From assembly GCA_035254305.1 (NCBI GenBank), contig DATFAS010000077.1:1-24000 (forward strand): 24,000 bases of DNA, given 5' to 3'. The position numbers and the translations under genes are program-made. Position 1 is the stretch's first letter; every line of letters starts with the position of its first letter. Positions 1,949 through 15,857 of this stretch are shown piece after piece. The DNA comes from Bacillota bacterium (GTDB lineage: Bacteria > Bacillota > Bacilli > Aneurinibacillales > RAOX-1). Under the pieces are notes generated by a model. The model saw only the letters and a program-made list of their open reading frames with translations. It did not search any database and had not been told where the DNA came from.

Positions 1949-3064
1949 CTATTTAAGATTCTCTGGATTTAATACCTCCAGCTCAGGAACAACAAATCGC
2001 CCATCCTTACGAATTAGACGATTATCGAACCAAATTTCTCCTCCACCATATTCAGGTCTTTGGATAAATACAAGGTCCCAATGGATACTTGATACATTCC
2101 CATTAGAAGCCTCGTCATAGCATTGTCCTGGGGTGAAGTGAATGGATCCATCAATTTTTTCGTCAAACAGGATATCTTTCATGGGCTCACGAATGAAGGG
2201 ATTAATCCCAATCGCAAATTCTCCTACATATCTTGCACCCTCATCGGTGTCGAATATCTTATTGATGCGCTCCGTATCATTAGCCGTTGCCTCTATTACT
2301 TTTCCGTTTTCGAAACGAAGTTTTACATTTTCAAATACAAAGCCATTGTATGGGCTTGGTGTATTATACGAAATCACTCCATTTACACTTTCGCGGACTG
2401 GTGCTGTATAGACTTCCCCATCCGGGATATTGAGCTGACCGTCACATTTGATTGCCGGAATCCCTTTGATAGAGAATTTTAAATCTGTTCCTGGTCCCAC
2501 GATTCTAACCTGGTCTGTTTTATTCATTAGTTCAACAAGTCCGTCCATAGCTTTTGACATTTTGCCATAGTCCATAGTGCAAACATCAAAATAGAATTTC
2601 TCAAACGCTTCCGTACTCATTGATGCTAATTGTGCCATGTTCGGATTTGGATAACGTAGAACGACCCACTTTGTCTTTTTAACCCGAATCATCGAATGCA
2701 CGGTATGATTATAATATTTGTTATAAAGCTTTAATTTCTCATCGGGAACATCCGATAACTCATAAATATTTTGCCCACCGCGAACTCCTATGTATGCTTG
2801 CATCATGGTCATCTGATTGGCATCAAACTCAGCCCATGTTTTGATCTGTTCTTCCGTTGCTTCTAGGAGTAGCTCCCGGGTAATTTGGTTATCACGAATA
2901 TTAACAAATGGACGCCCGCCTGCCTTGTGAACCTTTTGAACGAGTGCTCTGACAAGTGCATTCTCAATCCCAAACGCCTCAATTAAAACATTCTCACCAG
3001 ACCCAACCCGAGTGGAATAATTAACAAGTACGTCAGCTAAACGTTCTATACGTGCATCTAACAT
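1949..3064 (-). CDS. ampS: Aminopeptidase, peptidase family M29 (AmpS/PepS type)
   Basis: 371-aa ORF. MLDARIERLADVLVNYSTRV..., the overall length, and ...GEFAIGINP...DEKIDGSIHFTPGQ...HWDLV match thermophilic-metalloprotease (M29) aminopeptidases. A RBS and a terminator are present. Confidence 0.9.
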   Translation of the reverse strand: MLDARIERLADVLVNYSTRVGSGENVLIEAFGIENALVRALVQKVHKAGGRPFVNIRDNQITRELLLEATEEQIKTWAEFDANQMTMMQAYIGVRGGQNIYELSDVPDEKLKLYNKYYNHTVHSMIRVKKTKWVVLRYPNPNMAQLASMSTEAFEKFYFDVCTMDYGKMSKAMDGLVELMNKTDQVRIVGPGTDLKFSIKGIPAIKCDGQLNIPDGEVYTAPVRESVNGVISYNTPSPYNGFVFENVKLRFENGKVIEATANDTERINKIFDTDEGARYVGEFAIGINPFIREPMKDILFDEKIDGSIHFTPGQCYDEASNGNVSSIHWDLVFIQRPEYGGGEIWFDNRLIRKDGRFVVPELEVLNPENLK

Positions 3065-3344
3065 TCTTTTCGCCCCTTTCTTTAAGTTCCACCATAATTA
3101 TACTCTTTTGCCATATAGGACGTAAGTCAAGCATCTTTTCTATTTCTATTTTTTCAATTGTGGAAGATACTAAAATAAGATATAGAATTCCCAAAAATAT
3201 ATAGGATTATCACAAGCCCTTTCCCCCATGCCCAAATTACAAGCAGTCTTTCTCACCTCTACATATATTGTATGATAAGAACCTAACCATTAAATGGAAG
3301 GAAGTTAATCCTAGAAATTTAATTTGGAAGGAGGAAAGACCAGT

Positions 3345-3836
3345 TTGAAGCGCAAACCTATACTGTATAATATGAAGGGTTCTGCTGCTGCTTTCAACCA
3401 TCCTGGGAATTTTTTTGTACCCATTGTTGAGAAAGCAAAGCACAGTGTGATATCAATAGAAACAAAAGATCGCGGAAACAGCCGACAAAGCGATTTCTTA
3501 TTTTCATTCCTTTTTCCTAATAGTGAATCAGTAAGCACAACCAAAAGCTTTGGGACAGGATTTATCATTCATTCCAGCGGCTTTATTTTGACCAGCGAAC
3601 ATGTTGTCCACAATGCACAACAAATCCTAGTCAAACTCTATAGTGGAGAGCAGCGAGTGGCAAAAGTGGTATGGTCTGATGAAAAGAGGGATTTGGCCGT
3701 CCTACAGATTCCTACTCGCAAACCGCTATTCCCCCTCCCCCTTGGTTCTTCCGAAGAAAGTAGGGTTGGGGAATTAGTCATCTCCGTAGGCAATCCGATG
3801 GGTCTTGATCATACTGTAACGATAGAGTGTATATGA
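3345..3836 (+). CDS. 5' segment of a split trypsin-like serine protease gene (S1C/HtrA-like, no PDZ). The authentic coding part is 3345..3821; the last 5 codons (IECI-stop) are read from the inserted element
   Basis: TTG at 3345 lies 10 nt after AGGAGG (3329-3334). Translation contains GTGFIIHSSGFILTSEHVV (catalytic His codon 3600-3602) and KRDLAVLQI (catalytic Asp codon 3690-3692). It ends VGNPMGLDHTVT and then diverges. The catalytic Ser motif is absent from this piece. Confidence 0.85.
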   Translation: MKRKPILYNMKGSAAAFNHPGNFFVPIVEKAKHSVISIETKDRGNSRQSDFLFSFLFPNSESVSTTKSFGTGFIIHSSGFILTSEHVVHNAQQILVKLYSGEQRVAKVVWSDEKRDLAVLQIPTRKPLFPLPLGSSEESRVGELVISVGNPMGLDHTVTIECI

Positions 3837-3882
3837 TCATAGCCAAAAATAAGTGGGGGATTTGTACGAATAAAAATAAACG

Positions 3883-3914
3883 ATAAAAAAACTGAGATAA
3901 TAGGATCTCAGTTT
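3883..3914 (-). terminator. Rho-independent terminator after the HPr gene (end of the mtl-pts transcription unit)
   Basis: Perfect 10-bp stem AAACTGAGAT (3889-3898) / ATCTCAGTTT (3905-3914) with a 6-nt loop. On the minus strand it is followed by TTTTTTT (A-run 3884-3890). Confidence 0.75.
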
Positions 3915-3946
3915 ATGAAAAACCATTCTTATAGATTTTTTACTTT

Positions 3947-4207
3947 CTATTCTACTTCAGTCGTAAGTATTTCTTCTAAAGCAGTAACTGCTTGCTTCTC
4001 ATCAGAACCATTAACAATTAATTTTACTTCTTCACCCTTCTTGATTCCAGCCGCCAGTAATCCCATAATGCTTTTCCCATTTGCTTCTTTCTTATTCGTA
4101 ACTAGTTTGATATCGCTGCTAAAGCTAGTCGCCTTTTGAACGAAAAGTGTAGCAGGACGAGCATGAAGACCATTAGGAAGAGCTATTGTTATGCTTTTTT
4201 CTATCAT
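3947..4207 (-). CDS. ptsH: Phosphocarrier protein HPr (PTS)
   Basis: 86 aa. MIEKSITIALPNGLHARPAT has His15, and GKSIMGL has Ser46. The RBS is AGGAGTGG. Unusually, it lies downstream of ptsI. Confidence 0.9.
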   Translation of the reverse strand: MIEKSITIALPNGLHARPATLFVQKATSFSSDIKLVTNKKEANGKSIMGLLAAGIKKGEEVKLIVNGSDEKQAVTALEEILTTEVE

Positions 4208-4220
4208 TTAAATTCCACTC

Positions 4221-5939
4221 CTATTTTAAAAAATATGTCTTTACGTAAGAAGATACCTCATCAGCCGTATCCATAGATAGGATGTGGTCAATATGAGAAT
4301 CCACATCTCCCTTAGCCATCTGACCAATTTGACTTCTTGCAGCCAATATAGAGGTTGCACTCATACTGAATTCGTCTAGACCTAATCCGATTAATATAGG
4401 GATAGCGATTTCATCACCAGCCATTTCCCCACACATACCTACCCATTTTCCTTCCTGATGCGCAGCCTTAATCACCATTTGTACCAGGCGAAGAATAGCT
4501 GGATTATATGGTTGATACAAATAGGCAACTTGTTCATTCATTCGATCTGCTGCCATGGTGTATTGAACTAAATCATTGGTTCCAATACTGAAGAAATCAA
4601 CTTCCTTACTAAATCGATCAGCCATTACAGCTGTAGCGGGGATCTCCACCATTATTCCAATCTCAAGCTTCTTAGAAACAGCAATTCCTTTCCTGATTAA
4701 TTCCTTTTTTTCCTCTTCAAGGATTTCCTTGGCTTTCCTAAGCTCCCCTAAAGTAGAAATCATAGGGAACATAATCTTGAGATTTCCATAGGCACTCGCC
4801 CTAAGTAATGCCCGCAACTGGATACGGAATAACTCCTGTTGGTCCAAGCATAAACGGATAGCTCGGAAGCCTAGGAAAGGATTAAGTTCTTTCGGCAGCT
4901 CCATGTAAGATAACTGCTTATCTCCACCGATATCTAGTGTACGGATCACCACTGGCTTATCGCCCATTTGCTCTACAACAGATTTATAAGCTTGAAATTG
5001 TTCTTCTTCAGAAGGGAACTCATCTCTTCCCATATATAGGAACTCTGTGCGAAATAGCCCGATTCCTTGTGCTCCGTTTTCAAGAACAGCTACAACATCT
5101 TCCGGTCTTCCAATATTCGCTGCTAATTCAACGCTATGTCCATCCTTTGTAACCGAAGGAGAATTCACCAATTTGGCAAGCTTAGCTTTTCTTAATTCAA
5201 AGTCAGCTTTCTGCTCTTGGTATTCCACGATTTCATCTTCTGTTGGATCGATAAGAATAAGCCCATTAATCCCATCCAAAATAAGCTGAGTGCCCGCTTG
5301 AATTTCTTCTGTTCCACTCTTAGTACCCACAACAGCCGGAATTTCTAACGAACGGGCCATAATAGCTGAATGGGAGGTCCGCCCCCCTATATCAGTAACA
5401 AACCCTTTTACATATTGACGATCTAATTGAGCTGTATCAGATGGGGTTAAATCTTCAGCAATAAGAATAACCTCCTCAGATAAATTGCTCAACGAAGAAT
5501 ATTCTAAACCAAGAAGGTAGTGCAGTACTCGTTTCGAAATATCCCGAATATCTGCTCCACGTTCCTTCATATACTCATTATCCATATTCTCAAACATTTC
5601 AATATACATTTGAGAAACATCATTTAATGCCGACTCTGCATTCACTCTTTCACTTCTCATTTTCTCATTAACCGCATCAAGAAGTTCGGGATCGTCTAGA
5701 ACCAGGAGATGAGCACTAAAAATAGCTGCTTTCTCAGGGCCCATCTCCGCCTGTACTTTATCTCTTATCACGATTAAATCTGCCTTTGACTTCTCAATAG
5801 CTTCTTGCAACCGTTTCATTTCTAAAGAAACATCTTCAACCGTTTTCGTTTCAATCATAAGCTTCGGTGTTTTTAACAGGATTGCCTTCCCTATCGCAAT
5901 TCCTGAAGAAGCTGCAATCCCATACATTTTCTGCGACAA
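4221..5939 (-). CDS. ptsI: Phosphoenolpyruvate-protein phosphotransferase (PTS Enzyme I)
   Basis: 572 aa. It has the [21 protein letters not shown] phosphohistidine motif, and the PEP-utilising C-terminal domain ...GMCGEMAGD.... It has a TTG start 8 nt after GGAGGGG. Confidence 0.95.
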
Positions 5940-5951
5940 GATCTTCCCCTC

Positions 5952-7109
5952 CTATTTCACTTCAAGTTTTCGAAGATCATCGACTTGTTTCATCACAATG
6001 GAAAAGAGAGGGTGATCAACTGGAATTTGCGTATACTTACGGATGGTCTCCTCCATTCCTACCTCTCTAATGCTATTTTGAATTTCCACTGCTTCTGGAT
6101 CGCCAGGATAATCGAATAAAAGAGCACCCGCAATTCCTTTTGCCAGATGTATAGGAGTAATCCCATGTTCAAACGCCTGCATAGCTGGTCCTACCAGACG
6201 ATCATTCGGAGATAGCTTGCGTATGGGAGAACGTCCAACTCTGATCAATTCGTCCGATATAAACGGATTTTGGAACCTATTCATGATTTTATCGGTGTAT
6301 TCTAAATGCTTCTTTTCATCAAATTGATGCTTTGCTTTAAGAAGCTGTCCAGTTTCAAGCAATGTCTGTCTTACGCTATCAACAATGTTTTCATTCTTCA
6401 TAGCTTGATCAATAGTCTTTAGGCCATGTTGGTAACCTAAGTAAGCAGTAACTGCATGCCCTGTATTTACTGTAAACAACTTCCGTTCAATATAAGGGGT
6501 TAAATCCCTGACAAAGGTAATTCCTTCAATCTTAGGAACAGGACCAATAAATTGAGATTCATTAACAACCCACTCATAAAAAGGCTCAACTGTCACAAGT
6601 AATTTATCATCATGATTTTGAAGAGGAACAATTCGATCAACAGCCGCATCTGGAAAGCCAATTTGCGCCATTACCTTAGCTTTAACCGCTTCTTCAATAT
6701 TTTCCAAAACATAGGATTTTAATTGTGTACTTCCACCAACCATATTTTCGCAGGCAATCACATTCAAAGGCTGATCGCTTTTACCGATTCGCAACGAAAT
6801 TCCTTTGGCAATAACCGGTGCAATATACTTAAGAATATTAGGACCGACAGCAGTAGTAACAAGGTCTGCATTAGCAATAACATTGGCTACCGCCTCTTCA
6901 TCTTTCCCAGAAATAGCTCGTACACCTTGGATGGTGAACGTCTCTTGCCCCATATCTGCTAACCTAACTTGATATTCTTTGCGGGAACTGATCTCATTGA
7001 CTAGCTCTTGATTGACATCTACAAAACACACTTCATATCCAGATTGGTATAGTAATTGTCCAATGAACCCTCTTCCGATATTTCCAGCCCCAAAATGAAT
7101 CGCCAGCAT
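5952..7109 (-). CDS. mtlD: Mannitol-1-phosphate 5-dehydrogenase
   Basis: MLAIHFGAGNIGRGFIG NAD-binding N-terminus, about 385 aa. I prefer ATG 7109, which starts 1 nt after the mtlF stop with GAGGG upstream, over the longer track start at 7193, which would overlap mtlF. Confidence 0.9.
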   Translation of the reverse strand: MLAIHFGAGNIGRGFIGQLLYQSGYEVCFVDVNQELVNEISSRKEYQVRLADMGQETFTIQGVRAISGKDEEAVANVIANADLVTTAVGPNILKYIAPVIAKGISLRIGKSDQPLNVIACENMVGGSTQLKSYVLENIEEAVKAKVMAQIGFPDAAVDRIVPLQNHDDKLLVTVEPFYEWVVNESQFIGPVPKIEGITFVRDLTPYIERKLFTVNTGHAVTAYLGYQHGLKTIDQAMKNENIVDSVRQTLLETGQLLKAKHQFDEKKHLEYTDKIMNRFQNPFISDELIRVGRSPIRKLSPNDRLVGPAMQAFEHGITPIHLAKGIAGALLFDYPGDPEAVEIQNSIREVGMEETIRKYTQIPVDHPLFSIVMKQVDDLRKLEVK

Positions 7110-7110
7110 A

Positions 7111-7548
7111 TTACATCCCTCTTTCAAAAATGTCGATAATTTCTGCTTCTGACTGGGCCTTAACAATATCCTCAATATTTTTTTCTTCCGCACAAACCAA
7201 AGCGATATTCGATAACAGCTCTAGATGCTCGTCTCCAACGGCTGCAATTCCAATTAAAAGATAGGCTACATTCCCCTCTCCAAAATCCACACCTTTTGGA
7301 AATTGAACAACGGAAATCCCAGTTGATTGAATCCAGCTTTTAGAATCATTTGTTCCATGAGGAATCGCCACACCGTTGCCTATATAAGTTGTAAGCAATT
7401 CTTCTCTTTCCTGCATCTTCCCAATATATTCTTCTGAGACATGCCCTGCTTCCACTAGTAAGTTCCCAGCTAGTTCAATGGCTTCTCTTTTATTTGAAGC
7501 ATAAGCATTTAGCTTAATTTTTTTTGGTGATAGTACTGTCTGTGTCAT
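7111..7548 (-). CDS. mtlF: PTS mannitol-specific EIIA component
   Basis: MTQTVLSPKKIKLNAY...GNGVAIPHGT (phosphorylatable His). About 145 aa from ATG 7548, with GGGAG 9 nt upstream. The track start at 7614 is an unsupported extension. Confidence 0.9.
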   Translation of the reverse strand: MTQTVLSPKKIKLNAYASNKREAIELAGNLLVEAGHVSEEYIGKMQEREELLTTYIGNGVAIPHGTNDSKSWIQSTGISVVQFPKGVDFGEGNVAYLLIGIAAVGDEHLELLSNIALVCAEEKNIEDIVKAQSEAEIIDIFERGM

Positions 7549-7627
7549 GATGATCTGCTCCCTTTCCTTAAACAAAAGTATATTATCTATTGTTGACATT
7601 ATTAAATATAGCATCTCTTACAATTAA

Positions 7628-7656
7628 AATATAACCTTTAATATTAACATTTTCAA
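7628..7656 (-). promoter_or_regulatory. Candidate sigma-A promoter inside the mtlA-mtlF spacer
   Basis: Read on the minus strand: TTGAAA (7656-7651), a 17-nt spacer, then TATATT (7633-7628). It lies in a very AT-rich spacer, so chance matches are likely. Confidence 0.3.
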
Positions 7657-7723
7657 CAAAACTAAATATAAAACAGTAACAAAACATGTTGCCAAAATTA
7701 AATTTAATATCCCGTGCCCAACC

Positions 7724-7755
7724 AATAAGAAACGCTAGTTTCTAAACTAGCGTTC
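7724..7755 (-). terminator. Terminator-like hairpin immediately after mtlA
   Basis: 11-bp stem AACGCTAGTTT (7731-7741) / AAACTAGCGTT (7745-7755) with a 3-nt loop. It is followed on the minus strand by the weak U-tract TCTTATT. Confidence 0.4.
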
Positions 7756-7761
7756 GCCATA

Positions 7762-9198
7762 TTATCCTAAACGTTTTACCAATTCATCATATTTAGGGCT
7801 ATTTAAGAAATTTTCTACAGAAATATGTTCCACTGATGGGGCCTTAGCCTTTGCTCGTTCTGTAAGAGACTTATGAGTAATAACAATATCTGCATCACTA
7901 GGTATTTCATTTATAGCTGTATTGATTACAGTAATGTCCAAACCGGCATCCTTGACTTTCTTCCGTAGAATAGAAGCTCCCATAGCACTAGACCCCATTC
8001 CTGCATCACAAGAAAAGACGATTTTATTCACCGGAGTAGCCGCACTTGCAACTACTGCTTCCTCTTCCTTATTAGCTACAGATATTGCTGCTTTTCTTCC
8101 TTTAATCGATTCCATTTTTTCTGTTGCCTTCTCTAAATCATCATCTTCCACAGCTTGATTAGTCATCTTAAGTAAAGCTGAAGCAATTGCAAACGATACA
8201 CCCGTAGCAACAACCACCCCTGCTAACACTGGCAATAAACCACCTTTAGGTGCCATAGCCATTAATGCAAAGATACTTCCTGGTGATGGAACTGCAACTA
8301 ATCCTGCGTGAAGCAGTTGGAATGTAAAGGTCCCTGCAACCCCTCCACCAATCGCCGCCAAGATCAACCGAGGATTCATCAATATATAAGGGAAGTAAAT
8401 TTCGTGAATACCACCAAGAAAATGAATGATAATCGCACCTGGAGCAGACTGCTTCGCTGTTCCACGACCAACCAACCAATAGGCTAATAAGATTCCAAGT
8501 CCTGGACCAGGATTTGGTTCTAATAAGAAGAAAATAGATTTTCCTGCTGTTGCAGCATCCTGTAAACCTATAGGGCTTAATACCCCATGATTAATGGCAT
8601 TATTTAAGAAGAGAACCTTTCCTGGCTCAATGAATACATTCGCTAGGGGAAGTAACCCGGCATGTACAATTGCCCCAACCCCAGCAGCCAATAGCTTACT
8701 AACCCCTTCAACAACCGGACCCACTAAACTAAAGGAAAGAAGGGCAAGAATCGCTGCTATAATACCCGCTGAAAAGTTATTGACTAACATTTCAAAGCCA
8801 GATTTAACTTTTCCCTCAATCGATTTATCAAATTGTTTGATCACCCATCCACCTAGCGGACCCATGGCCATTGCGCCTAAAAACATAGGGATATCGGTTC
8901 CAACAATAATACCCATTGTGGCAACAGCCCCTACGACCCCTCCTCTTGTATCATGAACCATCTTCCCGCCTGTATATCCAATCAACAATGGGAGTAAATA
9001 AGTAATCATGGGTCCAACTAGTTTAGCTAGATGCTCATTAGGAATCCAACCAGTCGGAATAAATAATGCCGTAATAAACCCCCAAGCAATAAACGCTCCG
9101 ATATTAGGCATAACCATCCCACTTAAAAATCTACCGAACTTCTGAATACGGACACGTAACCCTACAGATTCTGTGTTTCCTGCTGCAGTACCTTGCAT
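7762..9198 (-). CDS. mtlA: PTS mannitol-specific EIICB component
   Basis: 478 aa. It has the ...[20 protein letters not shown]... EIIC membrane domain, and the C-terminal EIIB motif [20 protein letters not shown] with the phospho-Cys. The RBS is GGAGGAGG. Confidence 0.95.
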
Positions 9199-9260
9199 AA
9201 ATGTGCCTCCTCCAAAATTGAATTTGTTGCCATTTTTTCATTTTATTTTTCCTTGAATCA

Positions 9261-9289
9261 AATATAAACCGTTTTCATTAGGTTATCAA
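9261..9289 (-). promoter_or_regulatory. Candidate sigma-A promoter of mtlA, with an overlapping cre-like site (9264..9277)
   Basis: Read on the minus strand: TTGATA (9289-9284), a 17-nt spacer, then TATATT (9266-9261). TGAAAACGGTTTAT matches the cre consensus TGWAANCGNTNWCA at 12 of 14 positions. Confidence 0.45.
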
Positions 9290-9306
9290 CAGAATGAAAA
9301 CAAGGT

Positions 9307-9329
9307 TTCGTCCATCATGATGTTGACAA
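9307..9329 (-). promoter_or_regulatory. Possible MtlR operator upstream of the mtlA -35
   Basis: TTGTCAACATCATGATGGACGAA on the minus strand loosely resembles the TTGNCACA-N4-TGTGNCAA type operator reported for Bacillus/Geobacillus MtlR. That consensus is recalled from memory. Confidence 0.25.
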
Positions 9330-9367
9330 ATTTTAATTTGTTCAAAGGATTGGAGGCTTGACTTGTC

Positions 9368-11455
9368 CTATTGCATTAAGTCGTAGCAGTATTCATACAG
9401 TTTTTTCGAAAAGTAATCTGCAATGATTTTGGTTTCTTGAGTTTTAAGAGCATCTATCGTTTCATCGTCAATTAACAAGGCACTAATATGACTTAGCACC
9501 TCTAGACCCTCTTTTGTTATCTCCTTCGGACCCAAAAGCATTACAATATTTTCAATCTCAATTTGTTTATTTTCCATGGATCTCATCCATATTGGCTTCA
9601 TTAAATGATGGATTGTAAAAGAAACCTGTGTCATTTGATCATTTCTTCCATGGAATAAAGCCAATCCCGTATTCGGGATTCCAATCCCTGATAATTTTTC
9701 CCTTTCTAATAATTGTTTTACAACTTTCTCTTTATTTTTTATTATTTTCTTTTGGTGCAATAAATTGCATATATGATTTATTATTTCTTCTGTATGTTCA
9801 TAAGGGATACTGATTGTTGGGAAATCAAAGCCTTCAATAATGTCGATGATATGGTGGAAATAACTTTTCATGGATTTCAACTTCTCAAGGGGATTATTTT
9901 GAAGTTTAGGTTTTAATTGCTCAAGGTCTGAACGATGAACCTTAATCCCTCTCATATATAATTTAATTTTTTGGATATCTTCCTTTGTAAGTAAAGGGCT
10001 AACCAATATATATTTATTTGCTTCTATAAGCAATGGAATCGTGGAAATAATCATGTCGTATTCCCTTTTAGGGATGTGATCAATATCGAATAAGGAAACA
10101 TTTCTTATTTCCACTATTTCAGGTATTTCCTTTTCAATCCGAGTTGCCAAAATTTTAGAAGATCCGATCCCACTTGAACAAACAATTAATGCCCTGTAAT
10201 CCCACTCCTTCTCGCTTGTCCTCTCGAGTGCTGCACCAAAATGCATCACTAAGTAACCCGTCTCCTCTTCTGGTACATCTATATTTGAAAACACTACTTT
10301 AACTGCCTCTTGGATCACTCGAAACAAATCTCCATAATTTGCTTTAATCTGATCCAACAGAGGGTTCCTAATTTTCATGTTTCTTTGAATTCTAAATAAG
10401 GCCGGTTCCATATGTGTTAACAAACCGTACAATAAAGATGAATCACGGCTGAACTGGGTATCTAACTTATCTTCACAATAGCGAATAAACTCCATAATTT
10501 TTGCCACAAACTCCGCATTACTAAATTGCAAAGGATCATTCTGGGAATTACGAAGCTTAGCCCCTCGCAGATGCATGGTTATGTATCCGATTTCATCTGC
10601 TGGAATCTCCATTTGAAATATCATTTCTAATCTTTCTAGAATTTGCGCAGCCACTTTGTATTCTTGTGTCCCTTTAAGCTCTTGCAGGTAATTTTCGTCA
10701 AACTTAATTCGTTCTCCCTTTTTTATTCGTTCCATGGCTAGCGCAAGATGTATCACCAAACCGATATAGGCACTATCAGCTAAAGGATATGGCCACTCCT
10801 TCTCAAGATTGCGCAGTGCATTTTCGACCATAATTAGCTTTTCTTTTTCAATAAGTCCGAGTAGACGTTCCGATATCGAATCAATATTTCGTGATGACTT
10901 TCCCTGAATATTCTCTTTGATGAGGCCGATTAATTCTAACTCATTTAAGTGATCTGAAATAAGGTTACTAATTGCTTTTCGTTTGAACGATTCCTTCCCT
11001 TGTAGCTCTACACCATAACCTCGTTTTCGAATCAAGGATAAATCATATTTTTGAATCCAATCCTCCAGATCATCCAAATCATGACTAATCGTTGCTGGTG
11101 TTACCTTAAGATCATAAGCTAAAGAAACTAATTTAATAGGCTCAGTAGAACCAAGTAATAAGCAAAGGATCATTACTTTTCTCTCATCAGCTGTAAAATT
11201 TAACGTAGTTACATTGATCAGAGATAACCGTAGCTCTTCCTTAGCATCAAGGTCCCCTTCCATCAGAATACCGACACCCGCACGTTTAACTAATTTCAGA
11301 TGATATTGCTGGAGGAAAATCTCTATTTCTTCTAATTCTCGATGGATCGTCCTTGAGCTGACTTCAACCTCATCAGCGATTTCCTTAACTGTAATCCCAT
11401 TTTCATGGTCTAATAAAATATCTAAAATCATCCTTTGCCTAGACGAAATATTCAT
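9368..11455 (-). CDS. mtlR: Mannitol operon transcriptional activator MtlR (BglG/PRD-family; HTH, two PRDs, EIIB-like and EIIA-like domains)
   Basis: 695 aa. It has the N-terminal HTH MNISSRQRMILDILLDHENGITVKEIADEVEVSSRTIHRELEE, PRD-type histidine regions (ITMHLRG, LVMHFGA), the EIIB-like segment ALIVCSSGIGSSKILA, and an EIIA(Mtl)-like C-terminus (LALFHGR). Confidence 0.9.
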   Translation of the reverse strand: MNISSRQRMILDILLDHENGITVKEIADEVEVSSRTIHRELEEIEIFLQQYHLKLVKRAGVGILMEGDLDAKEELRLSLINVTTLNFTADERKVMILCLLLGSTEPIKLVSLAYDLKVTPATISHDLDDLEDWIQKYDLSLIRKRGYGVELQGKESFKRKAISNLISDHLNELELIGLIKENIQGKSSRNIDSISERLLGLIEKEKLIMVENALRNLEKEWPYPLADSAYIGLVIHLALAMERIKKGERIKFDENYLQELKGTQEYKVAAQILERLEMIFQMEIPADEIGYITMHLRGAKLRNSQNDPLQFSNAEFVAKIMEFIRYCEDKLDTQFSRDSSLLYGLLTHMEPALFRIQRNMKIRNPLLDQIKANYGDLFRVIQEAVKVVFSNIDVPEEETGYLVMHFGAALERTSEKEWDYRALIVCSSGIGSSKILATRIEKEIPEIVEIRNVSLFDIDHIPKREYDMIISTIPLLIEANKYILVSPLLTKEDIQKIKLYMRGIKVHRSDLEQLKPKLQNNPLEKLKSMKSYFHHIIDIIEGFDFPTISIPYEHTEEIINHICNLLHQKKIIKNKEKVVKQLLEREKLSGIGIPNTGLALFHGRNDQMTQVSFTIHHLMKPIWMRSMENKQIEIENIVMLLGPKEITKEGLEVLSHISALLIDDETIDALKTQETKIIADYFSKKLYEYCYDLMQ

Positions 11456-11573
11456 TTAACTATTACTCCTTATATCCTGATATTCTTTACTGTTATTCTT
11501 ATCGTATATCCCAATTATTAAGTTTACACTAGGAATTCGTCATTCACGAACCTCTAAGGTTAAACCTATCCAT

Positions 11574-11607
11574 GAAAAAACACCACATTCCAAAGAAAAT
11601 GTGGTGT
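11574..11607 (-). terminator. Rho-independent terminator after hom
   Basis: 10-bp stem ACACCACATT (11580-11589) / AATGTGGTGT (11598-11607) with an 8-nt loop. It is followed on the minus strand by TTTTTT (A-run 11575-11580). Confidence 0.75.
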
Positions 11608-11657
11608 TTAAGCCTATCAAAGTCATTTTTCAAATGACCACGAGGTTTAAATCCAAG

Positions 11658-12809
11658 TTATAATCGACAACCAATAATATCTCTAATAATAGGTATTTCT
11701 CCCTTACCCTCTACGGATAATTTGTACTTTTCAACTTCCTCAGCCGGAACAATTTTTCCATTCAACCATTGGTATGAAGATGGCTTACGGTCATAGCTAA
11801 TTTGAATGAATTCCTTTTGATCGTGATCTTGAATACTTGATGATAAGGTATATAAGCTAACTAGATCTTCTAGTATAGCACTAGCTGTTGGTAACGAGCC
11901 TGCCCCTGCTCCAACAAAGGTTAATTCTCCAGCCATATCTCCCGTTACTGCAATGGCATTTAAGACACCATTGATGCTAGCTAGAGGATGATCGTTTGCA
12001 ATTAGTTTAGGGGAAACCTCAAGACGAATGGTATGATGATCCTCCAACTCAACAGAAGCTAGAAGCTTTATCTTATACCCAAGTTCATGGGCTTGTTTCA
12101 GCTCCTCAGCAGTCACCGTTTCTATCCCTACTCGATACACTTTTTCTAACTCTGGTTCAACTCCGAATGCAAGCTTTGTAAGGATGGCTAATTTGTATAA
12201 CGTATCATAGCCACAGATATCTGCTGTCGGATCAGCTTCGGCATATCCTTTAAGCTGTGCTTCTTGAAGAACCTGTTCGAATGATGCCCCCTCATCCAGC
12301 ATCGAGGTTAAAATATAATTGGTTGTGCCATTCACAATTCCGTGTATAGATTGAATATCATTGCATTGCAAATTGTTTCGGAGGGTTTGAATGATGGGAA
12401 TGGCCGCACCTACACTAGCTTCGAAAAAAATCTTAACCCCTTGACGATTCGCTAGCTGTTGCAGCTCTGCCCCATGCTTAGCAATCATCGCTTTATTGGC
12501 AGTAATCACATGACATCCTTGTTCAATGGCCCATTTCACATACTCATAAGCTGGGTAGGCCCCAGCTAAGGATTCAATCATAACATTAGGTCGTTTTGCC
12601 ATTACATCTTTAAAGGAATCAGTCAACAAGGAAGAAATATCAGGAATATCGATATCCCTTCTTTTCATCATCTCTTTCACTAAAATGTTCTGTATCTCTA
12701 CTTTTTTATGTAAACGTTTTTCGATTTTCTGTTGATGGTGATAAAACCTCTGAACTACACCAGACCCTACTGTACCTAATCCTAGAATAGCTATCGATAT
12801 CTTTTCCAT
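11658..12809 (-). CDS. hom: Homoserine dehydrogenase
   Basis: MEKISIAILGLGTVGSGVV NAD-binding N-terminus, ...ANKAMIAKHG...FEASVGAAIPII...GIVNGTTNYILT...AEADPTADI.... ATG 12809 lies 8 nt after AAAGGGGGA; the alternative ATG is 12815. The track start at 12857 would run into the riboswitch terminator. Confidence 0.9.
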   Translation of the reverse strand: MEKISIAILGLGTVGSGVVQRFYHHQQKIEKRLHKKVEIQNILVKEMMKRRDIDIPDISSLLTDSFKDVMAKRPNVMIESLAGAYPAYEYVKWAIEQGCHVITANKAMIAKHGAELQQLANRQGVKIFFEASVGAAIPIIQTLRNNLQCNDIQSIHGIVNGTTNYILTSMLDEGASFEQVLQEAQLKGYAEADPTADICGYDTLYKLAILTKLAFGVEPELEKVYRVGIETVTAEELKQAHELGYKIKLLASVELEDHHTIRLEVSPKLIANDHPLASINGVLNAIAVTGDMAGELTFVGAGAGSLPTASAILEDLVSLYTLSSSIQDHDQKEFIQISYDRKPSSYQWLNGKIVPAEEVEKYKLSVEGKGEIPIIRDIIGCRL

Positions 12810-12837
12810 TTTCATATTCCCCCTTTGTTTATCACAC

Positions 12838-12998
12838 AAAAAAACCCTCTTCAACAAGAAGAAGGTTCTACAGCCCGATCCATTCTTCTTATCTATCAGA
12901 GCACAATTGCTCTGCAGGAATTAGCACCTTACCAATATCAATCGGTCGGTTGCCGGGTTTCATAGGGCCAGTCCCTCCACCACTCTAGATAAGAATTA
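12838..12998 (-). promoter_or_regulatory. SAM-I (S-box) riboswitch with intrinsic terminator, in the hom leader
   Basis: The minus strand reads TTCTTATCTAGAGTGGTGGAGGGACTGGCCCTATGAAACCCGGCAACC...GGTAAGGTGCTAATTCCTGCAGAG...GATAGATAAGAAG. These are the conserved S-box core blocks with P1 CTTATC/GATAAG. The terminator AACCTTCTTC-TTGTT-GAAGAGGGTT plus TTTTTTT follows. Confidence 0.88.
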
Positions 12999-13011
12999 TT
13001 AAATTATGTGT

Positions 13012-13040
13012 ATAATATAGCAAAATCGCATAGATGTCAA
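13012..13040 (-). promoter_or_regulatory. Sigma-A promoter driving the S-box-hom transcript
   Basis: Read on the minus strand: TTGACA (13040-13035), a 17-nt spacer, then TATTAT (13017-13012). It sits about 15 nt upstream of the riboswitch. Confidence 0.7.
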
Positions 13041-13070
13041 AAACAAATATTAAAATAACTTAGAAAACCT

Positions 13071-13108
13071 ACTACAAAAAAATAAAACCTGCATCTTCAT
13101 TTGCAGGT
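13071..13108 (-). terminator. Rho-independent terminator overlapping the stop codon of the 51-aa ORF
   Basis: Stem ACCTGCA (13087-13093) / TGCAGGT (13102-13108) with an 8-nt loop. It is followed on the minus strand by TTTTATTTTTTTT. Confidence 0.65.
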
Positions 13109-13252
13109 AGTCTTCCTAATAAACTGCCTATATAAAGATTCCGTCATATATCTTTTCCAATCATCGAATCCGTCTTTTGTAGCTTGTTTTTCTGCACGTA
13201 ATACACGAATTGTTCCATATTTCCCCTCGATCACCTTCAAGAGCTTACCCAT
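13097..13252 (-). CDS. Uncalled small basic protein (51 aa), divergent from the recombinase gene; candidate recombination directionality factor
   Basis: ATG 13252 lies 8 nt after AGAGAGG. Translation is MGKLLKVIEGKYGTIRVLRAEKQATKDGFDDWKRYMTESLYRQFIRKTTCK (13 K/R against 6 D/E). It has its own terminator. It falls below the ORF-track length cutoff. Confidence 0.4.
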   Translation of the reverse strand: MGKLLKVIEGKYGTIRVLRAEKQATKDGFDDWKRYMTESLYRQFIRKTTCK

Positions 13253-13386
13253 TCCAAACACCTCTCTTGAATTCAGCCTATTCTTGTAAACTGCCTATTA
13301 TGCTTGGGTGGAGTGGGTTATTAGATGGTTATACTTTAATCATTTCTAGCCATATGGTATGTATAAGAACCAATTGGAGGGGACAT

Positions 13387-14988
13387 ATGAAGCTGCCTGA
13401 ATGGGTCGAACAGATTATTTGCTACCTCCGTCGTAGCAGACAAGATATCGAGAAGGAAAGGAAGACCGGAGAAGACACCCTTGCCCAACAGAAGCAAATC
13501 ATGGAGAGAGTTTTGGCTGACTATAACCTCCCCTATCAAGTATTTGAGGAGATTGGAAGCGGAGATAAAATTGAAACAAGACCTGTGTTCTGTGCCGTAT
13601 TAGATCTGCTTGAGGAAGGAAAATACAAGGCTATAGCTGTCCGGGAACTGAGCCGTTTAGGGCGTGGTAGCTATACAGACATGGGCCGGATCTATGACCT
13701 AATCATTCAAAAGGATATATTAATTATCACTCCATACAAAATATACAATCCAACCAATCACGCAGACCTAAGGCAAATCCGTTTTGAGCTTTTTCTTTCT
13801 CGTGAAGAATTTGAAACCATTAAAGAAAGATTAATGAGTGGAAAAACAGCATCTGCTATGCAAGGAAAGTGGTCTTCAGGAGGAACAGCCCCCTTCGGAT
13901 ATAGAGTGAATGACAATACCCAAAAACTCGAGATCTATGAGGATGAAGCAAAAATTGTTCGTATGATCTTTGATTTATATGTTTACGGGCTTGAAGGTAA
14001 AGAAAAAGGATTCAGAGCAATAGCAACCTACTTAACTAGAAATGGGAACCCATCTCCAAGTGGGATGAATAATTGGAATGTCAGCATGGTAAAGAAAATC
14101 CTCATTGAAAAACAAGAACTATATGCTGGGTCATTCTTGTTTGGGACGACCAAAATGGTGAATGGAAAGAAAATAAAAAAACAAAAAGAAGAATGGATCA
14201 TTGTCGGGAATTCCCATCCAGGAATTATTAATGAAGAGATGCTAGAAAAGGTAAAAAAGAAGCATCAATTGCTTTACAAAACACGAACAAAGGTAGATTT
14301 TAATACCTCAGAGCTAGCAGGGCTTCTAATATGTTCGAAATGTGGTAGGAAAATGATTAGGCAAGCTAATTATCGTGAATACATCTCCAAAAAAACAGGA
14401 GAAATCACCATCCACAGCAAAGAAACCCTATGGTGCAATACGATCGGTTGTACTTTCGTCAGCTATCGGGCAGTAGAAGAAGCACTCCTTGAATTTTTGG
14501 CTACAATCGGGCATTTAAAAGATGAAGATTTTCAAGTGTTCATCCAACAAACACAAGAGAAACATAATGTAGATTTACACGGAGAAGAACGAATTCAACT
14601 AGCTACAGAAACAAAGAATCATTTAATTAAAAAACTTGCTTTCATTTATGAAAAATTTGAGGAAGGAATCTATTCTAAGGAAGAATTCATTACAAGACGC
14701 GAAGGCATCAACCAGAAAATTGGGGAATTAGAAAAGACCATTCGGCTTCTTCTAAATGTAGAATCACCAGCTCGCAAGCTGCAAGTGGATATAAACCAAA
14801 TGAAACAAATCCTACTGTCAGTATACAGAACATATCGAACGATTGAGAATACAGAAGAAAAAAATCGAATTCTTCATGGCATTATTGACCACGCCGTATT
14901 AGAACTGACTGAAAAAGTAAGAGGGAATAAACCCAGCAGATTTAACCTTGATGTTTATTTTCGCATGGAAGATTTCCTCATTCTATGA
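13387..14988 (+). CDS. Large serine recombinase (resolvase catalytic domain, recombinase domain, zinc ribbon and coiled-coil)
   Basis: ATG 13387 follows GGAGGGG. The N-terminus has ICYLRRSRQDIEKERKTGEDTL with the catalytic Ser codon at 13435-13437. It also has ...RELSRLGRGS..., the recombinase domain GGTAPFGYRV, the zinc ribbon CSKCGRKM...CNTIGC, and a coiled-coil-like C-terminal region. It is 533 aa with no disruptions. From memory, the N-terminal motif resembles SprA-type recombinases of SPbeta-like elements. Confidence 0.95.
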   Translation: MKLPEWVEQIICYLRRSRQDIEKERKTGEDTLAQQKQIMERVLADYNLPYQVFEEIGSGDKIETRPVFCAVLDLLEEGKYKAIAVRELSRLGRGSYTDMGRIYDLIIQKDILIITPYKIYNPTNHADLRQIRFELFLSREEFETIKERLMSGKTASAMQGKWSSGGTAPFGYRVNDNTQKLEIYEDEAKIVRMIFDLYVYGLEGKEKGFRAIATYLTRNGNPSPSGMNNWNVSMVKKILIEKQELYAGSFLFGTTKMVNGKKIKKQKEEWIIVGNSHPGIINEEMLEKVKKKHQLLYKTRTKVDFNTSELAGLLICSKCGRKMIRQANYREYISKKTGEITIHSKETLWCNTIGCTFVSYRAVEEALLEFLATIGHLKDEDFQVFIQQTQEKHNVDLHGEERIQLATETKNHLIKKLAFIYEKFEEGIYSKEEFITRREGINQKIGELEKTIRLLLNVESPARKLQVDINQMKQILLSVYRTYRTIENTEEKNRILHGIIDHAVLELTEKVRGNKPSRFNLDVYFRMEDFLIL

Positions 14989-15024
14989 GATCTTCTTTTT
15001 GGCAACTATCTGCTACATCCTTTT

Positions 15025-15261
15025 ACGAAAGGAATCATCAGTGCAAAAAACCGTCCCGTGAAGATCTCCGGTAAATTATATGAGGATATCATTCAAACAG
15101 ATTGTGCAATTAACCCTGGAAATAGTGGGGGGCCATTAATTAATCTGAACGGTGAAGTTATTGGTATGAATGCCTTTATTATTAAGAACAATCAAGGGCT
15201 GGGTTTTGCTGTAGGGATCGACAGTATTAAGGCGCAAATTGGCAGATACATTCATGAATAG
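15025..15261 (+). CDS. 3' segment of the split S1C serine protease gene (carries the catalytic Ser)
   Basis: The frame, open from the junction, reads [51 protein letters not shown]...[12 protein letters not shown]. The Ser codon is at 15124-15126. No RBS or plausible own start lies at the junction. The track's GTG at 15058 is internal. Confidence 0.85.
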
Positions 15262-15710: not shown

Positions 15711-15857
15711 TTATTCTTTACTCTTTTTGAATGCAATGATATAAATTTCTTCATTTTTTTCTTTATTCATGGATTGCTCGGCTGTCTGTAACAAATTTAG
15801 TTGGTCATAATTAAGATTGGCTATTGGCAGCTCATCTAAGTGATTGAACTTTTCCAT
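15711..15857 (-). CDS. Uncalled small acidic protein (48 aa), hypothetical
   Basis: ATG 15857 lies 8 nt after AAGAGGAG. Translation is MEKFNHLDELPIANLNYDQLNLLQTAEQSMNKEKNEEIYIIAFKKSKE. It is followed by a terminator. It falls below the track cutoff. Confidence 0.5.
   Translation of the reverse strand: MEKFNHLDELPIANLNYDQLNLLQTAEQSMNKEKNEEIYIIAFKKSKE

Follow-up and report, generated by a model that had tools for sequence, protein, structure and literature searches.

A conserved 51-codon gene beside a SprA-like recombinase encodes a probable SprB-family directionality factor in an element that splits a protease gene

The window, that is the whole stretch of 24,000 nucleotides that was analysed (positions 1 to 24,000 of contig DATFAS010000077.1 in the Bacillota assembly GCA_035254305.1), contains a gene for a PDZ-less HtrA-like serine protease which is split into two parts by an element of 11,206 bp, extending from 3823 to 15028 as defined by the ACGA cores of its two junctions (Table 1). 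Its extent is not 13041-15050. ACGA is the sole sequence common to both junctions, and the arms TTTTTGG and CCAAAAAT stand about 20-22 nt either side of the core and recur in the related loci L016 and L018. The attL arm TATATGAT(C/T)ATA(G/C)CCAAAAAT is common to the window element and the L018 element, and the attR arm TTTTTGG is found also in L016, with the related TCTTTGG in L031 and L034. The two protease pieces, of trypsin-like, PDZ-less HtrA type, are collinear and the joined reading frame is kept exactly across the junctions. The protease gene is contiguous in the relatives G002-G005 and G012, and in four genomes of the same family it forms an uninterrupted open frame of about 243-280 codons, with 80-83% identity and with the halves abutting exactly. 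No phage genes were found among the element contents. The host genome holds Spo0A, with a score of 412 bits that exceeds the curated family cut-off. With a gene split in frame and intact in relatives, and with a sporulating host, the element belongs with the intervening elements of which skin, SPbeta and gin are examples, and it has no phage genes.

Table 1. Coordinates of the split protease gene, the element inserted in it and the small gene with its signals
Feature	Position	Strand	Details and basis
5' part of PDZ-less HtrA-like serine protease gene	3372..3821	+	ends ...GNPMGLDHTVT
Left junction attL	3819..3850	+	ACGA core 3819-3822; element-side arm ends in CCAAAAAT (3843-3850)
Cargo: ptsH, ptsI, mtlD, mtlF, mtlA, mtlR, hom	3947..12995	-	NCBIfam
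SAM riboswitch leader of stand-alone hom	12886-12995	-	Rfam RF00162, 97.6 bits
Intrinsic terminator of small gene	13077..13108	-	stop codon within loop
Small gene (SprB-like, candidate directionality factor)	13097..13252	-	ATG at 13252, stop TGA 13097-13099; translation, relatives, probable SprB homology
Ribosome-binding site AGAGAGG of small gene	13261..13267	-	8 nt before ATG; read from sequence
Possible mother-cell (sigma-E-type) promoter of small gene	13275..13303	-	GCATAAT 13297-13303, 14 nt, aATAggcT 13275-13282; inference, weak -10
Promoter-like pattern before recombinase gene	13333..13359	+	AC, 16 nt, then CATATGGTA; read from sequence
Large serine recombinase P0002, 533 aa, SprA-like	13387..14988	+	divergent from small gene, 134 nt away
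Right junction attR	14996..15028	+	arm begins TTTTTGG (14996-15002); ACGA core 15025-15028
3' part of protease gene	15025..15261	+	contains GNSGGP active-site serine motif

The cargo of this element is metabolic. The mtl genes are present on the element only and none were found elsewhere in the genome, and for the remaining cargo genes paralogues occur elsewhere in the genome with identities of 57-62% (ptsI), 39-51% (ptsH) and 43% (hom). The ptsH and ptsI genes of the element (3947-5939) are thus extra copies, with paralogues in G000:C114 and G000:C10, and a near-consensus promoter TTGACA-17-TATTAT is located at 13040-13012 for the SAM riboswitch and hom. With these genes, the riboswitch and the recombinase accounting for the remainder, the earlier statement that a 51-codon ORF upstream of the recombinase is the only unassigned coding capacity of the element proved essentially right. 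Outside the element, a 48-codon ORF (MEKFNHLDELPIANLNYDQLNLLQ...) lies downstream of the protease gene at 15711-15857 on the minus strand, with conserved counterparts adjoining that gene in G231 (L034), G119 (L032) and G003 (L039). In another genome of the same family, G001, the protease gene is broken elsewhere, near residue 146 (G001:C8:190910-191347 and G001:C36:17231-17497), and the break is adjoined by a distantly related recombinase (27% identity, G001:C8:191596-192825, minus strand); no SprB-like ORF was found. The protease gene seems to be a repeated landing site.

The minus strand upstream of the recombinase encodes MGKLLKVIEGKYGTIRVLRAEKQATKDGFDDWKRYMTESLYRQFIRKTTCK, followed by TGA, and this 51-aa ORF was found as originally described, with its position, its translation, the AGAGAGG ribosome-binding site at a distance of 8 nt and the terminator with the stop codon in its loop all present. 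The terminator consists of a hairpin of 7 pairs, ACCTGCA-AATGAAGA-TGCAGGT, followed by the T-run TTTATTTTTT, has a folding energy of -12.3 kcal/mol (z = -3.2 versus shuffles) and separates the small gene from the hom promoter and the SAM riboswitch. On a contig of 2.3 kb (L013), a 51-codon relative, MKEPIRVIQGKYGMIRVFHSEEKASQDEFRDLKRYMTEALYRQKIKKAANP, which is 53% identical to the window small protein, is preceded at a similar distance by GAGAGGAG as ribosome-binding site and is divergent from a recombinase (P0003) which, at 67% identity, is the nearest recorded to that of the window, the spacer being 134 nt, exactly as in the window. Comparison of the two small ORFs gave a nucleotide identity of 64%, with differences distributed as 17/13/26 over the three codon positions, and values of dN = 0.36 and dS = 2.2 with a dN/dS ratio of about 0.17. 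The small gene is under purifying selection, and the 51-codon ORF is a real, conserved gene. Since the window ORF and its L013 counterpart are both already called genes in a public protein collection, the ORF is not hidden from gene callers, as had been supposed.

The recombinase gene encodes a protein with the Pfam domains Resolvase and Recombinase above cut-offs and Zn_ribbon_recom weakly, and it matches the integrase family phrog_95. It is full length, is 38% identical to SprA of SPbeta over 530 aa (E 8e-126) and has the N-terminal YLRRSRQD catalytic-serine motif in common with SprA, which by sequence places it within the SprA clade. Between the two divergent genes, the control regions of the window (13253-13386) and of L013 (498-631) are both exactly 134 nt in length and have in common the block CTGCC.AT...GCTTGGG.GGA as well as ATAAGAACCAA just 5' of the recombinase ribosome-binding site; such shared blocks could be binding sites of a regulator. 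Two other assignments were considered for the small ORF and rejected, namely a structured RNA, since Rfam shows only the SAM riboswitch further left, and a leader peptide for the recombinase, since the small ORF is located on the opposite strand.

Relatives of the small protein were collected by several searches. A phmmer search against 1.84 billion representatives retrieved P0122, encoded at locus L018, the second match of that search being a spurious repeat protein, and a word-index protein search gave three family members only. Six-frame searches of whole genomes gave members in G012, G119, G132, G231, G331 and G394, and a profile that included SprB added those of G129, G247 and G188 and two weak matches in G140. 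In total, 13 clear relatives and two weak matches, both in G140, were found, with the family motif (I/L)KVI(E/Q)GKYGxIR conserved among relatives. Pfam, PHROGs and NCBIfam hold no family for the small ORF, a match to MIF4G being at chance level; pattern scans of genome contigs and viral contigs revealed no family member, and tblastn against 50,697 phage records returned chance matches only. Such a short ORF of 51 codons, with no match in curated family libraries, might be thought to have arisen by chance in the AT-rich spacer upstream of the recombinase, but the 13 clear relatives in different genomes, the conserved motif, a dN far below dS and HMM matches with E values of 2e-10 to 4e-12 per genome already refute this explanation, whose probability is practically negligible.

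Distribution of the family was compared with that of SprA-like recombinases. The first family profile matched 7 of 401 sampled genomes of the class, and a SprA-like recombinase at E <= 1e-70 was present in 20 of the 401. All seven genomes with the small ORF fall within these 20, with recombinase and ORF on one contig in each, and an overlap of this size is expected by chance with a probability of about 2e-10 by hand arithmetic that treats related genomes as independent. With the broader profile, 10 genomes contain both genes, or 11 when G140 is counted. Among the 401 sampled genomes, no family member was found in any genome without a SprA-like recombinase. Conversely, a clear match to the small ORF was lacking in 9-10 of the 20 genomes that have a SprA-like recombinase, and no SprB-like ORF was found in G041, which among the whole genomes searched has the closest recombinase (66% identical, in an EAL-domain gene). 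Co-divergence of small protein and recombinase identities was not significant (mirror-tree Mantel r 0.27, p 0.08). As for the proposal that the ORF should be conserved next to homologous recombinases, the co-occurrence check was positive, with SprA-like partners, unrelated cargo and two target genes.

Examination of the individual loci revealed that 12 of the 13 relatives are located 0.1-32 kb from a large serine recombinase gene, the 13th, in L018, belonging to an element that runs off the contig before its recombinase end is reached. The split target is the same PDZ-less HtrA-like protease gene in at least seven elements and prkA, a known sporulation kinase gene, in two. Among the elements in the protease gene, that of G394 (L031) is about 4.4 kb long with the small ORF 26 nt inside attL and the recombinase at the other end, and that of G132 (L033) is about 11 kb long with the small ORF at attL and the recombinase 9.6 kb away. 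In G231 and G119 the small ORF is located 0.9 kb and 1.4 kb, respectively, from a recombinase that lies beside the protease 3' part. In L018 the protease gene is split two codons from the junction of the window by a prophage-like element with cI- and cro-like genes, and the small ORF lies 1.6 kb from attL. Elements in prkA are about 34 kb (G012) and about 31 kb (G331) in length, and in both the small ORF is the last gene ahead of the 3' part of prkA and lies some 150 nt from the element end, with the recombinase at the other end, 32 kb and 29.5 kb away. The prkA pieces themselves were located in G012:C46 (L002 502-1383, L023 1787-2740) and in G331:C1 (L030 8919-9863), and prkA was not found named as a target in the literature on gene-splitting elements cited here. 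The small ORFs of G129, G247 and G188 lie each 2.7-15 kb from their own recombinase, and the two weak matches of G140 lie 0.6 and 2.4 kb from the two recombinases of that genome.

At L014 1597-3603 (GCA_041640875.1), a 66%-identical recombinase follows immediately on the 5' part of an EAL-domain gene, with which it is fused in one 668-codon frame, at the left end of the element, so that the EAL-domain gene is a third target of the clade. In L016, which has a 64%-identical recombinase and the same protease target, a divergent ORF begins with MKHKAKTIFLAMTS...; since the contig breaks off within this ORF and its start does not resemble the small-gene family, the locus carries no weight either way as to conservation of the pair. 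A family member of 53 codons (2498-2659, plus strand) is present on a metagenome contig, L020, where it is convergent with a recombinase gene (2767-4323, minus strand) at a distance of 108 nt, an arrangement that resembles SPbeta in its joined attP form. The L020 recombinase is of another subfamily, with about 20% identity to that of the window; ArsR- and ArsC-type genes and an aquaporin-like (MIP-type) channel gene occur in its neighbourhood.

These elements range in size from 4.4 to about 34 kb. In G012, G331, G394 and G132 the small ORF is the last gene before a junction, which is an SPbeta-like layout, and the small gene points to attL in the window and likewise in G394. The pair is adjacent and divergent in the window and in L013; with the small gene of the window facing attL, this is what would be expected had the cargo entered the interval from attL to the small gene. 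Cargo is unrelated between the elements, the common parts being the recombinase and the small ORF, and this points to a function in recombination.

The relation of the small protein to SprB, the recombination directionality factor of SprA in the Bacillus phage SPbeta, also designated YotN (PMC4191935, PMC5499854, PMC11722253), was assessed at the levels of sequence and predicted fold. Alignment of a family profile of 10 sequences with a SprB profile of three sequences by hhalign gave a probability of 74% and an E value of 2.8e-5 over 44 columns, and the L020 member (RQPIKVIQGKYGEIRIFKPVTPASQNDLDEFYRF) matched SprB in BLASTP with an E value of 4e-6. In searches with a SprB HMM, 4 of 500 shuffles scored as high as the window protein and none of 500 as high as the L020 or the G394 member, six of 10 family members having scores that only 0 to 4 of 500 shuffles reached. 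Direct BLASTP of the window protein against SprB gave an E value of 0.04 in a shifted register, which is not significant; identity between the two is about 21% in the multiple alignment, and a five-sequence family profile retrieved nothing at E <= 10 from the PDB sequence set. The link of the window protein to SprB thus runs through profiles and the L020 member as an intermediate, and since the direct comparison is not significant and the PDB sequence search was empty, homology of the family to SprB is probable, not certain.

An AlphaFold2 model built on four sequences (pLDDT 83.6) predicts a hairpin at residues 4-18 (strands 4-10 and 13-18) and a helix at residues 26-49, the latter with pLDDT values of 83-91. 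When this model was compared by Foldseek with 350,542 PDB chains, the first-ranked matches were 9dxd_D and then 9dxd_B, which are the directionality factor chains of the SPbeta integrase complex, at a level that is not significant (E 1.9, probability 0.35, TM 0.45). According to the cryo-EM study of the SPbeta integrase, SprB can dispense with its N-terminal helix (residues 1-13), and the C-terminal helix (37-58) is essential, with the double mutations L37D/F40D and A45D/L49D abolishing function (PMC11722253). In the alignment the small-protein family is without the N-terminal helix of SprB only and is otherwise collinear with it; the columns of SprB L37/F40 and A45/L49 are occupied in the window protein by F29/W32 and T37/Y41, and across the family these four columns contain mostly hydrophobic or small residues, a few members having a gap or a polar residue there.

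Taken together, the 51-aa protein is best explained as a shortened SprB-family recombination directionality factor of the SprA-like recombinase whose gene lies at a distance of 134 nt on the opposite strand, a reading to which we assign a probability of about 0.78. The analogy with SprB and SprA drawn in the sequence-only reading is supported by conservation beside recombinases, by the similarity of the partner recombinase to SprA and by the hhalign match, and on these sequence comparisons it is likely to reflect true homology. As a real, conserved gene product that is a distant relative of SprB, the small protein is very probably the factor that enables excision of the 11.2-kb element, with restoration of the protease gene. 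It may alternatively be argued that the protein is a real and conserved element protein with another role, such as regulation of transcription, maintenance of the element or immunity, which travels with the recombinase because both are located near the element ends. The L018 relative comes after a cro-like HTH gene, itself opposite to one of cI type, in a location that early regulators also occupy, the pairing with SprA-like recombinases is incomplete, the L020 partner is of another subfamily and the similarity to SprB is modest. Against this stand the missing DNA-binding motif, the absence of any match in Pfam, PHROGs and the PDB sequence set, the restriction of the shared parts to recombinase and small ORF and the collinearity with SprB including positions needed for its function; the window element moreover has no other element genes to regulate. 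We consider such a different role unlikely. A further and bolder proposition, rather doubtful at this stage, is that the 51-residue hairpin with its helix represents the minimal working core of the SprB fold, a portable directionality module for the SprA-like clade in non-phage elements of Bacilli and, in L020, maybe for another subfamily.

If the protein acts as a SprB-family directionality factor, the following sequence of events would be expected. On its own the recombinase would be limited to insertion of the element, through joining of attP with attB. If the SPbeta cryo-EM structures are a guide, the 51-residue protein, with its hairpin and amphipathic helix, would bind the recombinase at the place where its zinc-ribbon DNA-binding domain adjoins the coiled-coil base, and this binding would redirect the coiled coil in such a way that recombinase dimers at the cores of attL and attR pair and exchange strands. 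The 11.2-kb element would then leave as a circle and the protease gene would be rebuilt in frame. With expression of the small gene as the timing switch, excision would take place in the mother cell during sporulation. What we infer for this protein from the comparisons above is that it binds the recombinase and stimulates excision, together with the timing of its expression.

Signals that might direct such timing were sought upstream of the small gene and its relatives. In the window, neither a sigma-A-type promoter nor a clear sigma-E/K -10 box was found upstream of the small gene, and a degenerate -10 box only was observed: relative to the sigma-E consensus, GCATAAT is a good -35 box and aATAggcT a poor -10 box. 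In five of 10 family members, CATAnnnTA or CATACnnT is present at -33..-23 from the start codon. Within the same loci this -10-type pattern has a background frequency of 1.7% per 50 nt, which gives a P value of about 3e-7 that is generous because the pattern was fixed after the sequences had been seen. Transcription of SPbeta sprB takes place in the mother cell, starting at a promoter of sigma-E/K type and giving a leader of 20 nt (PMC4191935). Excision in the mother cell during sporulation is most likely in view of the presence of Spo0A in the host, the splitting of prkA by relatives and the mother-cell-type -10 that half of the members carry where sprB has its promoter.

That no clear promoter precedes the window ORF, and that the element carries metabolic cargo only, would also be in keeping with a decaying remnant, a former directionality factor which is no longer expressed or needed in a domesticated, phage-free element, with the protease permanently split. 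Such decay is very unlikely, given that the frame is intact with ribosome-binding site and terminator, that purifying selection is evident in comparison with L013, that the recombinase is full length and keeps its YLRRSRQD motif, that both junctions keep the protease reading frame exactly and that the conserved attP-type arms are present.

The lack of a common motif makes the directionality factors of large serine recombinases difficult to identify (PMC12286644, PMC11795197), and they are the limiting part when these recombinases are to be used as reversible genome-editing tools. The short SprB-like family described here is recognisable by sequence and position and accompanies about half of the sampled SprA-like recombinases of the class, thereby providing at least a dozen new candidate pairs of recombinase and directionality factor with att sites that can be read from the split genes. 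If one small family of directionality factors works across recombinase subfamilies, this would contradict the current view, in which every large serine recombinase is paired with an unrelated factor of its own, and would, if true, furnish a rule for finding such factors from sequence. To the gene-splitting elements of spore-formers, these findings add two targets, the PDZ-less HtrA-like protease gene and prkA, and one element with metabolic cargo only.

Several systems with small directionality factors in sporulating bacteria can be compared with that of the window. The gin element in gerE of Bacillus cereus ATCC 10987 encodes GirX, a protein of 42 aa that is a proven directionality factor acting with GirC; it is needed together with the large serine recombinase for excision and blocks integration (PMC5595907). 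GirX and the window protein are alike by description in that each is a tiny protein without known motif in a non-phage gene-splitting element, the split gene of gin being a sporulation gene, and gin differs from the window element by having three recombinases, 31 genes and another target gene. In the skin elements, CD1234 with CD1231 in Clostridium difficile and Skr with SpoIVCA in B. subtilis are pairs in which a small directionality factor limits excision from a sporulation gene to the mother cell, and the skin-type factors, all described as different, bind the same region of their recombinase (PMC5025042, PMC10747680). CD1234 and Skr are set apart from the window protein by their described folds and families.

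The closest counterpart is SPbeta, in which sprA (yokA) is the first and sprB (yotN) the last gene, each adjoining an att site, and a stem-loop is annotated over the sprB stop codon. The window differs in that its small gene is beside and divergent from the recombinase, not at the far end of the element, and in that the element is without phage genes, splits another target gene and has the core ACGA as compared with the 16-bp sequence of SPbeta. The likeness extends from the proteins to their genes: SprB and the window protein are both small (58 aa versus 51), with the same order of a hairpin and a C-terminal amphipathic helix, predicted in the case of the window protein, and with collinear alignment; the window gene too has a stem-loop over its stop codon, its relatives include small ORFs at an att site opposite the recombinase, and both proteins are encoded in gene-splitting elements of spore-formers together with recombinases that are 38% identical to each other.
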